From Candidatus Nanosyncoccus sp. (GTDB lineage Bacteria; Patescibacteriota; Saccharimonadia; Saccharimonadales; Saccharimonadaceae), in the NCBI GenBank assembly GCA_045604085.1, contig JAZUNK010000023.1, positions 1 to 62,925 on the forward strand: a DNA stretch of 62,925 bases, read 5' to 3'. A model generated the notes under the pieces. It saw only the letters and a program-made list of their open reading frames with translations, made no database searches and had not been told where the DNA came from. The translations under genes and the position numbers were made by a program. Positions 19,927 through 55,389 of this stretch are shown in pieces (position 1 is the first letter of the stretch; each line of letters starts with the position of its first letter).

Positions 19927-19950
19927 AAGAGCTCAAGCTACCAGTAAAGC

Positions 19951-20082
19951 AGTTTGGATCTGTTTGTCCTGCAAAGAAAATGCAACGCAAATCAAGAAAA
20001 ATCCCCTTTATTTGTCCTACGGACTTAGAGGAGATTTTTTCTTTGCTGAGTTGTGTTTTTTTACGACAAATAAATCTGGATT
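19951..20082. repeat. Long imperfect palindrome (fold-back element 1)
   Basis: GGATCTGTTTGTC/GACAAATAAATCT, AAAATGCAAC/GTTGTGTTTT, AAAAATCCCCT/AGGAGATTTTT; apex GTCC-TAC-GGAC. Confidence 0.75.
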
Positions 20083-20112
20083 AAATCTCATTACGCTGTT
20101 TTAGATAGGATT

Positions 20113-21312
20113 TTATTTTCTAGCGCTTATCCTATATTCTATATCTCTTAACACATTTTCAAAATACATAAACGATTCGTACGGCGAAGCGTAGGCGGAA
20201 AAATAGGCATGGACATCGCCATCGTTCCAATATTTTGTGCACATTGAGTAAGGATGATCGGAAGTCGTCATATATCGCCAATCGCGAATTAGGTCCTCGT
20301 CTTTAGTCTCCATAACATCTGTTCGCATTGAATAAAGCTCTTCCATCGCGGAAGTCTGCATTGAATTTGATAACCAGGCCGAAAGGTCTCGCTCCGTGTC
20401 GGCCCAAGTGACTGTTTCCGGCATCGAAATTTCATCAACCGGCCCAGAAGAATTACAAGCTTCAGAGACCGTAAGAAATTTGTTATCATATTCTTTCAGC
20501 CATTCCGGAATTAGATTATTCATAAAATCAAAGATACCAGTGTCTTTCCATTGATGTTCGCCAAAAGTTTCAAAATCCATAAATAGATTTATTAAATTTC
20601 CTCGCAAGCAATCCATTTCGAGCCAATTCTTATATTTTGGTACAGTCAGCGGCCATTCGCTCCAACTACGATTTGAGAACCGGAATGCAACATCATCTGA
20701 AAGACGATAATTTTTTAATAAGAGTTTTATATTTTTACATCCAGCTGGACGATAAACATAGTTCGGGCTGCGCCAGCCAAGGATTTTATCCCAACCTTCA
20801 GCCAAAATGCCACGATAACCTTGTTCCTCCGCCCATTTAGCCAAATTATCATTATAAGCAAATTCTGTGTTGCGGAAAACTTTCGGAGTTACGCCGAACA
20901 AGCCTTTAATTTTTTCGGTGTGTTTTTTTACTTGTTCGTTAAATTCGTCGCGATCATAGAAAAATGCGAGTGAGTGATAGTATGTCTCGCTAACAATTTC
21001 AACTTGCCCATAATCAACCATACGCTTAACTTGTTTAATTAATTCGGGACCCCATTTTTCAGCTTGATCTAACCAGGTGCCAGTAATTGAAAAAGATACC
21101 TTAAAGCCAGGATATTTTTTCATATTTTTTTCCAACAAATCAAGCATTGGTATATAACTTTTTTCTGCGACTTTTTTAAAGATACGCTCATTTGACTGAC
21201 GGCCGTTATAATTATCGTTAAAATAGTTAGAATTATTCGCAACGTCAAAAATAGAATATTCGCGATAGCGAACAGGCTGATGAATATGTAGATATAAACA
21301 AATCGCGCGCAC
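20113..21312 (-). CDS. GH57 alpha-amylase/glucan hydrolase
   Basis: HIHQP, ETYYHS, FRNTE, FMDFETFGEH. Confidence 0.92.
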   Translation of the reverse strand: MRAICLYLHIHQPVRYREYSIFDVANNSNYFNDNYNGRQSNERIFKKVAEKSYIPMLDLLEKNMKKYPGFKVSFSITGTWLDQAEKWGPELIKQVKRMVDYGQVEIVSETYYHSLAFFYDRDEFNEQVKKHTEKIKGLFGVTPKVFRNTEFAYNDNLAKWAEEQGYRGILAEGWDKILGWRSPNYVYRPAGCKNIKLLLKNYRLSDDVAFRFSNRSWSEWPLTVPKYKNWLEMDCLRGNLINLFMDFETFGEHQWKDTGIFDFMNNLIPEWLKEYDNKFLTVSEACNSSGPVDEISMPETVTWADTERDLSAWLSNSMQTSAMEELYSMRTDVMETKDEDLIRDWRYMTTSDHPYSMCTKYWNDGDVHAYFSAYASPYESFMYFENVLRDIEYRISARK

Positions 21313-33765: not shown

Positions 33766-33798
33766 ATATTATATACTATAGGTTAAAATTAGCTTAAA
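33766..33798 (-). promoter_or_regulatory. OmpR/CiaR-type direct-repeat box and -10 for the VTC operon
   Basis: Minus strand TTTAAG-N5-TTTAAC, 10 bp, TAATAT, 7 bp, ATG. Confidence 0.65.
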
Positions 33799-33968
33799 AT
33801 AACTGCATAGAGCGAGCCCACTTATTTTTAACAACTTTTCCTCATCCGAGGCGAGTAAAGTTGCAAGCCCGAAGGGCTGTGCAACTTGATCGAGACGAGG
33901 ATTGAGCGAAACGTTGTGAAAAATAATATGGCGCGAGCGTAAAGCAGTTATTTTAAGCTAATTTTAAC
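33782..33968. repeat. Long palindrome (fold-back element 2) with 25 bp perfect terminal inverted repeat
   Basis: GTTAAAATTAGCTTAAAATAACTGC (33782-33806) / complement (33944-33968); apex GCCC-GAA-GGGC at 33867-33877. Confidence 0.9.
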
Positions 33969-33984
33969 GCTAATATATTATAAT
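33952..33984 (+). promoter_or_regulatory. OmpR/CiaR-type direct-repeat box and -10 for the response regulator
   Basis: TTTAAG-CTAAT-TTTAAC, 10 bp, TATAAT, 7 bp, ATG. Confidence 0.7.
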
Positions 33985-38875: not shown

Positions 38876-38950
38876 TGGGGATTCGCCAAGTGGTAAGGCA
38901 TCGGGTTCTGGTCCCGACATTCGGGGGTTCGAATCCCTCATCCCCAGCCA
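38876..38950 (+). tRNA. tRNA-Gln(CTG)
   Basis: TGGGGAT/ATCCCCA acceptor stem, TCGGG-TTCTGGT-CCCGA anticodon arm, CCA end. Confidence 0.95.
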
Positions 38951-38993
38951 TGCTCTTCCAGAGAGCTTTTTTGTTCGGGACTCGTTCTTCGAA

Positions 38994-39210
38994 TCGAATC
39001 CCTCATCCCCAGCCATGATAGTCTTTGATGAGAAGAAACTAGGAAAGCGTAGCTTTCCGAAGGATACGAGAAATGTAAAAAATCTAGAGCTCGCTCTAGT
39101 ATTTTTTACATTTTGAGTAGACTGAAGGGGCATAGCCCCTAGTTTCTTCTTGACGTAATTATCTGGCTCGCAGGGAATATAGGGATTATATATCCCTCAT
39201 CCCCAGCCAT
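38994..39210 (+). repeat. Two extra direct copies of the tRNA-Gln 3' end
   Basis: TCGAATCCCTCATCCCCAGCCATG at 38994-39017; ATCCCTCATCCCCAGCCAT at 39192-39210. Confidence 0.9.
38997..39187. repeat. Long branched palindrome (fold-back element 3)
   Basis: AGAAGAAACTAGG/CCTAGTTTCTTCT, AAATGTAAAAAAT/ATTTTTTACATTT, side hairpins GGAAAGC-GTA-GCTTTCC and GGGGC-ATA-GCCCC. Confidence 0.85.
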
Positions 39211-39311
39211 TTTATTATTATGTTATTCGATAAAATATGATATAATGTTCTACGGCATGGCGGGCGCAAAAGCTCCGCCTTGTACTTTTTTAGAAGGAGG
39301 CAGAACAAAAA

Positions 39312-52619: not shown

Positions 52620-54050
52620 GTGAAAAACCTTTATAGACGCTATAGGCCGTTAAAACTAAGCGAGGTAGTTGGTCAAGATCAAGTTATTGAGCCCTTAAAA
52701 AAATCCCTCGCTCAAGGGAAAATTGGACATGCATATCTTTTTGTGGGGCCAAGAGGGTGCGGTAAAACGAGCGTGGCGCGTATCCTAGCACATGAGGTGA
52801 ACAATTTTAAATATGAAATTGAAGATAATTATGTTGATATTATCGAGATTGACGGCGCAAGTAATCGTGGGGTCGATAATATTAGAGAATTAAGAGAAAA
52901 AGTAACGATTGCGCCAACAGCTGGAAAATATAAAGTATATATTATAGATGAAGTCCATATGTTGACAAAAGAAGCCTTCAACGCGCTTCTTAAAACCCTT
53001 GAAGAACCACCAAAACATGCAATATTCATCCTGGCGACAACTGACGCATATAAAGTACCTGTCACAATCACTTCAAGGACGCAAACCTATACTTTTAAAT
53101 TAGCTGACACTGATACGATGTTTGATTTTCTAAAATCAGTTGCCGAGAAAGAAAAAATCGACATAAGCGATGACGCGTTAAAAATTGTAGCTAAAAGGAG
53201 CGGAGGATCCTTCCGCGACTCTTTGAGCCTACTCGATCAAATCTCAACTTTATCGGAAACTAAAATTACCAAAGATTTAGTTATTTCAGCAATGGGGTTA
53301 CCAAGTGACGAAAAAATTGCGACGCTTTTGTCTGAATACATTAATGGAAATGTTGTAAAAATTGTGGCCAACCTGAAGGATTTATTATTATCTGGAGTTA
53401 AAGCCGAGACTTTAACGGAGGAAATAATTTCAAAAATCGTCGAAAATCCTAGACCTGAATTGCTAACTTTACTATCTAAATTACCCGACGTAAAGGCTCC
53501 TTATGCCGAAGCAAAATTATTGGTTGCCTTAGCTGTAAATGACGCGCGGGTGGCCGGCAATGTCTTTTTCAAGGGCGGTGACCGATTAGCTCGTTCTGAG
53601 GCGTATATTCCTGACGGACCCGAGAAAGCTGCCCGAAGGGCAGACTTTCCCGGAGCTCCAGCGCATGACGCCGAAGGCGAGTTAGTCGGCCCCAAAAAAG
53701 GCATGTCGGACAGGACCCGTGCTAATAGTAAAAGCAAGGATTTTGACTGGGATGGATTTCTTGATAATGTAAGACAGAAAAATGAGGCAGTTTATTTACA
53801 GCTGACAAAAACACAGCATGAATTGGACGGAAATGAATTACACATTTATCCGATAAAGAAAATTGTTAAAAATATTTTATCGCGCGATAATAATAAAAAA
53901 ATATTAATCGACGTGGCGGCTGGTGTAAAAATTACAATACATGAAATAGATGAGGTCCCAAATAATAGTAAAAAAGATACAACCCTCTCGAAAATATCTG
54001 ATATAATGGGTGGAGAGGTAATAAATGATGGAGGAGGAAGCCCGTTCTAG
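52620..54050 (+). CDS. dnaX: DNA polymerase III subunit gamma/tau
   Basis: LYRRYRP, GPRGCGKT, EIDGASNRGVD, IIDEVHML, FNALLKTLEEPP. Confidence 0.96.
   Translation: MKNLYRRYRPLKLSEVVGQDQVIEPLKKSLAQGKIGHAYLFVGPRGCGKTSVARILAHEVNNFKYEIEDNYVDIIEIDGASNRGVDNIRELREKVTIAPTAGKYKVYIIDEVHMLTKEAFNALLKTLEEPPKHAIFILATTDAYKVPVTITSRTQTYTFKLADTDTMFDFLKSVAEKEKIDISDDALKIVAKRSGGSFRDSLSLLDQISTLSETKITKDLVISAMGLPSDEKIATLLSEYINGNVVKIVANLKDLLLSGVKAETLTEEIISKIVENPRPELLTLLSKLPDVKAPYAEAKLLVALAVNDARVAGNVFFKGGDRLARSEAYIPDGPEKAARRADFPGAPAHDAEGELVGPKKGMSDRTRANSKSKDFDWDGFLDNVRQKNEAVYLQLTKTQHELDGNELHIYPIKKIVKNILSRDNNKKILIDVAAGVKITIHEIDEVPNNSKKDTTLSKISDIMGGEVINDGGGSPF
53544..53722 (+). repeat. Palindromic insertion in-frame within dnaX (fold-back element 5)
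   Basis: GCGCGGGT/ACCCGTGC, CCGGCAATGTCTTTTT/AAAAAGGCATGTCGG, CCGATTAGCTCGTT/GGCGAGTTAGTCGG; apex CTGCCC-GAA-GGGCAG. Confidence 0.88.
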
Positions 54051-55389
54051 GAATGGTGGTCGCGTGCCACCGCAAGATGTCGTAGCTGAAAAATCGCTGC
54101 TGGGTGCTATTATGCTTTCAAACGATGTCCTGCCTGAAATTTTAACTATTTTGAGGCCGCGCGATTTTTACAAAAATCGACATCAGATAATTTTCCAATC
54201 TATTATCGACTTGTATGACCAACATAAGCCGATCGACTTATTAACTTTGACTGCCGAGTTGAAATCCAAAAAGAAGCTAAAAGAAATTGGAGGAGCATCG
54301 TATTTAACTGAGCTTTCTAACTTTGTGCCCGCAGCTTCACACGCAAAGGCCTATGCTGATATCATCGAAAAAGCTTCGGTTAGACGACGTTTAATAAAGG
54401 CAGGGACGCAAATCGCAGATAAGGCTTACGAAGACGATGCGGATGCCGACAATTTAATTGGAGCAGCAGAAAAAGAATTATTTGAAGTATCAGATAAAAT
54501 TATAAAAAGCGATTATGTTGCTATGGATGAGTTGCTTGCTGATGCGTTTGACAGAATTGAAGAACTACATAAAAATAAAGGGATTTTGCGTGGTCTTAAA
54601 ACTGGTTTTCGTGATTTAGATAAAAAAACAGCAGGTTTTCAAAAAGGTGATCTCGTCATTATAGGTGCACGCCCGGCAATGGGTAAAACAACTTTTGCTC
54701 AAAACTTAGCATATAATATTGCAAGCATAAACAAAAAAGGCGTTCTATTCTTTTCGATGGAAATGGCGGCGAATGAGATTATAGACCGCATGATTTCTGA
54801 TGTATCGGGAGTTGATAACTGGAAAATGCGAACTGGGAATTTGAGCGATGAAGAATTTTCTCGTATCGGTGACGCGTTAGGAGAGATGGATGAAATACCA
54901 ATTTATATAGACGATACTAGCTCTATGACAATCGTCGAACTTCGCAACAAAGCACGACGCGCAATGCACGACCACGATATCGGAATTGTAATTGTTGATT
55001 ATTTGCAGTTAATTTCTGGGTCCGATCGGTACGCGGGGAACCGTGTGCAAGAAGTAACAGAAATTTCGCGTGGTCTAAAAATCCTTGCGCGCGAGCTTGA
55101 AATACCAGTCGTCGCTTTAGCTCAGCTTTCGCGTAATGTGACTGGCCGTGATGACCCTCGCCCAGTCTTATCCGACCTTCGCGAATCGGGCTCAATCGAG
55201 CAGGATGCTGATCTGGTAATGTTTCTACATCGCCCAGATTATTATCGTCAAAATGATGACAATTATGAAGAAACACACATTACGGAGCTCTTGATCGCAA
55301 AACATCGCCATGGTGCAGTTGGGAAAATTGAATTATATTTTCACCCAGAGCTTCTTCGTTTTATGTCTCTTGATAAAACCCGCGAATAA
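54025..55389 (+). CDS. dnaB: Replicative DNA helicase
   Basis: PPQDVVAE, GARPAMGKT, FSMEM, VDYLQL, SDLRESGSIEQDAD, AKHRHG. Confidence 0.97.
   Translation: MMEEEARSRNGGRVPPQDVVAEKSLLGAIMLSNDVLPEILTILRPRDFYKNRHQIIFQSIIDLYDQHKPIDLLTLTAELKSKKKLKEIGGASYLTELSNFVPAASHAKAYADIIEKASVRRRLIKAGTQIADKAYEDDADADNLIGAAEKELFEVSDKIIKSDYVAMDELLADAFDRIEELHKNKGILRGLKTGFRDLDKKTAGFQKGDLVIIGARPAMGKTTFAQNLAYNIASINKKGVLFFSMEMAANEIIDRMISDVSGVDNWKMRTGNLSDEEFSRIGDALGEMDEIPIYIDDTSSMTIVELRNKARRAMHDHDIGIVIVDYLQLISGSDRYAGNRVQEVTEISRGLKILARELEIPVVALAQLSRNVTGRDDPRPVLSDLRESGSIEQDADLVMFLHRPDYYRQNDDNYEETHITELLIAKHRHGAVGKIELYFHPELLRFMSLDKTRE

Follow-up and report, generated by a model that had tools for sequence, protein, structure and literature searches.

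Repeats that fold into long hairpins and sit in frame within conserved genes are known from Rickettsia. In the accounts of these Rickettsia palindromic elements (RPEs; Ogata et al. 2000, 2002) drawn on here (PMC2229807, PMC10969869), the elements are dispersed stem-loops similar in size to the repeat described below, lie both between genes and in frame within conserved genes, form several families per genome, are near-neutral for the protein that carries them and occur in small, host-dependent genomes; these accounts name no mobiliser. Reviews, in the parts that treat such coding palindromes, leave their movement open.

Here we describe a hairpin repeat in the dnaX gene of a Candidatus Nanosyncoccus sp. 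(Saccharimonadia). The window, by which we mean the whole stretch of 62,925 nt that was analysed (contig JAZUNK010000023.1 of assembly GCA_045604085.1), belongs to a genome of 730 kb in 46 contigs that is 96% complete (G000 in the following). A sequence-only reading of the window had proposed a coding-compatible repeat comparable to RPEs, and this view has held up: the element is a rod of 171-179 nt, is dispersed within unrelated genes as well as between genes, keeps the frame where many DnaX orthologs lack it, and shows strong compensatory change.

Results

A hairpin repeat occupies the linker of DnaX

The dnaX gene (52620..54050, plus strand) encodes the tau/gamma subunit of DNA polymerase III, a protein of 476 aa assigned by Pfam and NCBIfam. 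It is a single-copy gene whose frame is intact despite the insert, and its end is overlapped by the dnaB helicase gene on the same strand (54025..55389). GC content is 0.55-0.60 at 53550-53750, compared with 0.28-0.43 in the adjoining coding DNA and a genome mean of 0.40. The GC-rich hairpin first noticed in this AT-rich gene was recovered with its apex at 53629-53643, and the peptide quoted for it lies within the open frame, which the hairpin does not break. Over the interval originally given to it, 53524..53738, it folds into a single unbranched rod of -98.1 kcal/mol (z = -6.1), an energy that none of 200 shuffles reached. Host sequence makes up 53524-53543 and 53723-53738, and the interval trimmed to 53544-53722 reached a z of -7.05; the opposite strand folds more weakly (z = -3.1). 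The hairpin is missing from the 25 longest inverted repeats of the window because its stem is gapped.

The core of the repeat, which we call family A, spans 53548..53718 on the plus strand. It is 171 nt or 57 codons long, begins at codon position 2 and covers DnaX residues 310-367. Copy-specific extensions lengthen its stem, 4 nt on the left (53544..53547) pairing with the right extension (53719..53722) through one G-T pair among others. A 5' terminal motif (53548..53557) and its 3' partner (53708..53718) face each other in an asymmetric internal loop and are common to other hairpin families of the genome. The inner module (53602..53670) contains near-invariant loop motifs at 53602-53616 and 53658-53670 that are kept in all family members, and at its tip an apical stem-loop (53629..53643) varies between copies in length and sequence. 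The 3' junction is covered by a 216-nt contig of a public run, which matches 53684-53899 with 3 differences, so an assembly artefact is unlikely there; among the contigs of the public runs, none spanned the whole element.

In an AlphaFold2 model, DnaX residues 308-372 form a coil that separates the helical core from a folded C-terminal domain encoded 3' of the insert (residues 377-440, 53748..53939, pLDDT 82-87), and pLDDT falls below 50 at residues 308-344 and 358-372. The insert is thus predicted by the model to sit in a disordered linker, and it is probably unimportant for DnaX function. That dnaX carries an insert was correctly recognised at the outset; that it adds about 60 residues overstated the net gain. 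The linker has 66 codons here and from 20 codons upward in element-free proteins, and the nearest DnaX homolog in our tree has 437 aa compared with 476 aa. Because removal of the core would leave a linker of 9 codons, below any element-free linker seen (at least 20), the element has largely replaced the DnaX linker rather than lengthened it. A naturally short DnaX of 359 aa (L035, G021:C1) is without the folded C-terminal domain and keeps the terminal tail.

The repeat is dispersed in the same genome

A scan of other coding sequences for similar hairpins, which had been recommended, revealed dispersed in-frame copies in unrelated genes of G000. The core recurs at 93%, 93% and 91% identity in the genes for PheT, PolA and TrmD, each time in frame. 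A half copy in a FemAB gene at a contig end and a diverged, reversed copy in an exonuclease I-like gene are also in frame, and one family A copy is intergenic. The dnaX copy is 91-93% identical to the pheT, polA and trmD copies of its own genome, whereas identity to 6 dnaX-linker copies of other species (L097 and L088 left out) is 65-78%. Since the pheT, polA and trmD copies resemble it more than any of these 6 dnaX copies do, it is a recent arrival or was recently overwritten.

Using blastn from 18 seeds, we counted 55 copies of several hairpin families in G000, so that a streamlined genome of 0.73 Mb carries at least 55 repeats. About 41 lie in long open frames, some of them near the frame start, where they may precede the true start. 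Nine of the 55 lie at contig ends; such hairpin repeats break assemblies. AT-rich intergenic families are additional to the 55, and a genome-wide hairpin scan by GC content and folding was too unspecific to serve as a basis for the census. Two terminal motifs are common to several families, in which they surround different interiors.

The window holds further repeats. At 33771-33980, an intergenic rod of 210 nt has outer inverted repeats that match perfectly over 25 bp (33782-33806 / 33944-33968) and a family A-like apex; its relatives in G000 are on contigs C34 (91% over 125 nt) and C39. The rod at 19948-20119 represents an AT-rich intergenic family with about 8 copies in G000 (contigs C8, C21, C24, C27, C28, C30, C32 and C40), which has a middle bulge motif in common with family A. 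Three direct copies of a 24-nt stretch at 38929-39211 resemble a tRNA 3' end and mark a possible integration site. Elsewhere in G000, a fully collapsed copy consists of the two terminal motifs only, with complementary flanks (G000:C29:4888-4910), and a mini copy of 33 nt lies in frame in an ORF of 808 aa (G000:C42:25341-25373); both are end states of interior deletion. One hairpin family can also be nested in the apex of another and still be in frame, as at G000:C41:15810-15968 and in the L091 dnaX linker.

Structure and frame are kept while the peptide is free

We aligned 17 copies, which are related, and predicted a structure from this alignment; both partners have changed in 35 of its 57 pairs, and 96.4% of cells are paired. 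None of 500 shuffles scored as high, and slid structures gave 7-14. In 105 copies, stems vary, but hardly any change is seen at the unpaired and wobble positions of the inner module. Among the four G000 copies, pN (0.055-0.126) is close to pS (0.050-0.124), and sense, antisense and frame-shifted readings were all found. Structure is conserved and the peptide is free. The opposite pattern, a peptide conserved across relatives without compensatory changes, was looked for at the suggestion of the sequence-only reading; instead, the hairpin covaries and the peptide varies.

We examined 95 copies, 55 of which split a gene that is recognisable on both sides, and all 55 frames are open: 53 directly and the two others, flagged as RecG matched to a shadow frame, on other analyses. 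The core has only one open register per strand and, as it is 57 codons long, inversion in place turns one open register into the other. This bears on the idea that the repeat is an intron-like RNA, spliced out so that the peptide is never made. The length and stability of the RNA rod, its covariation and its closed ends would suit an intron, but splicing would not require that 55 of 55 gene-splitting copies keep the frame; moreover, both orientations occur and no Rfam match was obtained at E up to 10. We give this explanation next to no credence.

The DnaX linker is a recurrent site

Many DnaX orthologs lack the element, as the recommended alignment across relatives revealed, and linker content is swapped between them. 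Of 46 distinct linkers, 17 fold much more stably than their shuffled versions (z <= -3.5), a number that includes the window's own linker and three loci chosen for carrying the element; boundaries could not be set for six linkers. The well-folding linkers belong to at least three families and occur in both orientations. In a search of 113 DnaX homologs, 69 had an element match, a number inflated because the query contained the element, and 44 had none; 26 carry family A reversed. Ten sequences with family A in the same orientation are scattered on a quick DnaX tree built with the linker removed, where they require 10 changes, and well-supported branches make 4 of these unavoidable. The sister proteins P0003 and P0120, only 0.03 changes per site apart, have the element in opposite orientations, and alleles that are 94-96% identical upstream contain wholly different linker elements. 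The trmD, pheT and polA sites of five relatives likewise hold other families, remnants or nothing. We rejected a single ancestral insertion into dnaX on the basis of the tree and of the higher identity to copies of the same genome. Together, these comparisons argue that the DnaX linker has been re-occupied repeatedly by different hairpin families, and in this genus the "variable linker" of DnaX derives in large part from repeats. Swapped linkers could, however, reflect recombination between strains and not a property of the element.

In many bacteria, according to the account in PMC6815119, a slippery site before a stem-loop in dnaX gives a short product. A gamma-like product had also been considered for the present gene, by way of a DnaX-specific recoding signal that acts through frameshift, pausing or mRNA cleavage. 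The site does follow the clamp-loader core, where truncation would yield a gamma-like protein, and a -1 shift in the left arm meets a stop within 4 codons. However, there is no in-frame slippery heptamer in 53519-53729, the same element is present in the unrelated proteins PheT, PolA and TrmD, and other DnaX homologs have no element match, family A reversed or other families. The idea of a DnaX-specific signal is thus unsupported, and we consider it highly improbable.

Elements are probably reshaped in place

Nine exoIII genes bear an element, and in all nine the outer stem consists of conserved host GT(A/T)x(L/I) codons before the site and their reverse complement after it. Each gene's stem mirrors the synonymous codons used in that gene, and two of the nine have a flipped core. 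The element-free exoIII gene of G000 has no such stem. Template switching, as set out in PMC8604942, yields two products, arm homogenisation and spacer inversion, and stem growth into host codons together with a flipped core is what it predicts. Template switching would also account for the copy-specific complementary flanks.

Eight close copy pairs showed 37 uncompensated single stem changes and 8 compensated double changes, five of the latter from the most diverged pair, compared with about 0.5 doubles expected. Copying between arms would produce such doubles, but selection could explain them equally well, and the support from close pairs is modest. Nor can template switching account for everything, since it should erase asymmetric loops, yet these are invariant.

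The repeat prefers one strand

The plus strand of the element lies on the strand that is C-rich at four-fold sites in 82 of 103 copies (24/34 sense, 29/36 antisense and 29/33 intergenic), counts that are not independent, as copies are related and several sit in the same host gene. In G000, the skew does not simply follow gene direction. The window's dnaX copy and the pheT and trmD copies are on the minority strand; the preference for the C-rich strand is a bias, not a rule. On the plus strand of the element, G-T oppositions outnumber A-C oppositions (361 vs 222). Because this excess is found in sense, antisense and intergenic copies, and is strongest in antisense, the relevant fold follows the element and not the mRNA. 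A G-rich strand may mark the leading strand; if it does so here, the better-folding strand would be the nascent lagging strand or the leading-strand template.

The repeat was found in one genus and is patchy within it

Of the 201 genus genomes searched, 46 matched the family and 155 did not; relatives with names are Ca. Nanosyncoccus or unclassified Saccharibacteria. The exact inner pattern was not found in a further 250 genomes of the order, 248 of which are from other genera. There were 0 matches to the exact core pattern in viral contigs, and no blastn match was found in phage and plasmid collections. We located 76 metagenome loci, 40 in long frames, 26 intergenic and 10 unclear. These loci (L226-L301) contain divergent subfamilies of the core, and their host genes include uvrA, uvrC, dinB, recG, recJ, priA, pcrA, fpg, lepA, mnmA, prmC and tatD, among others.

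Among 369 genomes of the genus we found no true empty allele: the closest other genome is 71% identical in the dnaX DNA upstream of the element. Contigs of 4 public runs contained no joint that skips the element at dnaX-dnaB or pheT, a result made uninformative by patchy cover. The trmD region of the window's genome (G000:C8:30816-31718) is 92% identical over 1 kb to that of G289:C14 (L004, L202), whereas neighbouring DNA is 66-78% identical, which suggests that the element-bearing trmD gene was recently exchanged between species.

Of 34 host proteins scanned, 30 were given a family name, and nearly all of these act on DNA, tRNA or ribosomes. Could the repeat be a domesticated host signal, either a strand-polarised DNA site for replication, repair, uptake or segregation, or an mRNA structure that tunes genes for DNA and tRNA handling? 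The set of host genes would fit, as would the invariant loops, the strand polarity and the trmD copy, which is 96.5% identical to that of a sister species and so exceeds its flanks (90-93%). On the other hand, genes for proteins acting on DNA, tRNA and ribosomes make up much of any reduced genome. A host signal is also at odds with the 155 genomes that have no match, with fast site turnover in which either orientation is accepted, and with a G-T excess that follows the strand of the element and not that of the mRNA. We judge a host signal to be quite improbable.

No mobiliser was found among the protein families searched

In the G000 genome, complete to 96%, searches for Y1 and IS110 transposases and for reverse transcriptases found none. 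Across the genus, a Y1 transposase occurs in 9 of 201 genomes, and only one of these 9 is among the 46 carriers; no element adjoins any of 10 Y1 loci. The sole tyrosine recombinase of G000 is XerC/XerD-like (312 aa), and the genes adjoining intergenic copies are, by inspection, ordinary. SbcD scored below the curated cut-off in all 41 genomes of the order, compared with 8 of 14 control genomes matching. Absence of SbcD would let long hairpins persist; it is also missing in other genera without the element, however, and therefore does not explain the restriction to this genus.

The repeat could nevertheless be a non-autonomous, MITE- or REP-like element served by a transient or missed transposase of the DDE or HUH/RAYT type, with the terminal motifs as its ends and template switching as later decay. 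The same terminal motifs around different interiors, down to the 33-nt mini copy and the fully collapsed copy, are consistent with this possibility, and invariant loops suggest recognition by a protein. HUH elements show strand bias and leave no visible target duplication, and both features fit the present repeat. Against such an element stand the lack of Y1, IS110 and reverse transcriptase genes in G000, a Y1 distribution that does not track carriers, Y1 loci and intergenic neighbours that offer no link, and the many copies that keep a perfect outer stem without any terminal motif. Overall, we think this origin unlikely.

Discussion

The explanation that we favour, and hold to be likely, is that of a dispersed in-frame repeat of 171 nt that is probably selfish, encodes a neutral linker peptide, is reshaped by template switching and spreads via folded single-stranded DNA. 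Survival would be limited to copies that landed in tolerant loops and in the single register that is open for their orientation. Copying from arm to arm would extend stems into host DNA, generate compensatory changes and invert the interior in frame. Once occupied, a site may become a hot spot where short common modules allow replacement by other copies or families. A folded single strand of DNA at the replication fork would serve as the intermediate by which new sites are reached. A putative trans-acting protein may recognise the invariant loops, a step to which we give an even chance.

A more far-reaching version is possible, though we put it forward tentatively and would rather doubt it: a transposase-free selfish class that spreads as folded single-stranded DNA from one strand of the fork, has its invariant asymmetric loops read by host replication or repair proteins, writes itself into host codons by copying between its arms and uses the DnaX linker as a revolving door. 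If this were true, whole peptide cassettes in loops of essential enzymes would turn over, by exchange and inversion, at a higher rate than mutations arise in the enzyme core. The 369 genomes of this one genus contain hundreds of copies, in either orientation and in nested forms, with strand polarity and with sites used recurrently, which makes the question of movement testable by comparison. Some Saccharibacteria are reportedly genetically tractable (PMC10633639), so bench tests appear feasible.

How does the repeat relate to other known systems? Like bacterial MITEs (Correia/NEMIS, ERIC, RUP and YPAL), as characterised in PMC2229807, it is of the 100-200 bp class, codes for no transposase, and has a stable stem-loop and imperfect inverted ends. 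Unlike them, it shows no visible TA ends or direct duplication at the dnaX, pheT, polA and trmD copies of G000, for which the search gave no close empty allele, and its flanks are complementary instead. Imperfect terminal inverted repeats are conserved in many copies and missing in others, the ends often being lost while the stem is kept. With the CGTC-tagged REP superfamily, in the description of Di Nocera et al. 2013 (PMC3733652), the repeat shares the lack of a dedicated transposase and the frequent presence of intragenic copies in tRNA genes and genes for DNA repair and replication; in addition, the inner module terminates, on the minus strand, in a CGTC tetramer. Those REPs are defined by a stem of 8-9 bp, a loop of 4-5 nt, an unpaired tag and a CCA tail, whereas here the rod has 60-70 bp and the tetramer is paired. 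Identity with this superfamily was rejected, as the folds fail the definition of an unpaired tag, short stem and CCA tail.

Two further candidates were discarded. A RAYT-linked REP (REPtron, REPIN) does not agree with Y1 genes that are neither flanked by repeats nor co-occur with them, and an integron attC site does not agree with a single, XerC/XerD-like recombinase and copies inside genes. The changes at the exoIII and dnaX sites resemble template switching at imperfect inverted repeats, for which arm homogenisation, spacer inversion and multi-codon changes in coding DNA are reported in PMC8604942. Template switching acts in place, however, and explains on its own neither spread to new genes nor invariant loops.

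No paper on such repeats in Saccharibacteria or Patescibacteria was found in the full-text literature searched, which mostly comprised papers outside subscription and main texts without supplements. The dnaX repeat is best described as an analogue of the RPEs, a likeness judged by its properties. It differs in belonging to another phylum and in its length, 171 nt compared with the 105-146 bp given for RPEs in the sources cited above. Further points of difference may be that it is read in both orientations, consists of nested and swappable modules, undergoes repeated replacement at one site, extends stems into host codons and has strand polarity. The class as such is known from Rickettsia; it is the density of copies, the recurrent swapping at one linker, the mirroring of host codons and the strand polarity that make the movement of such elements a testable question here.
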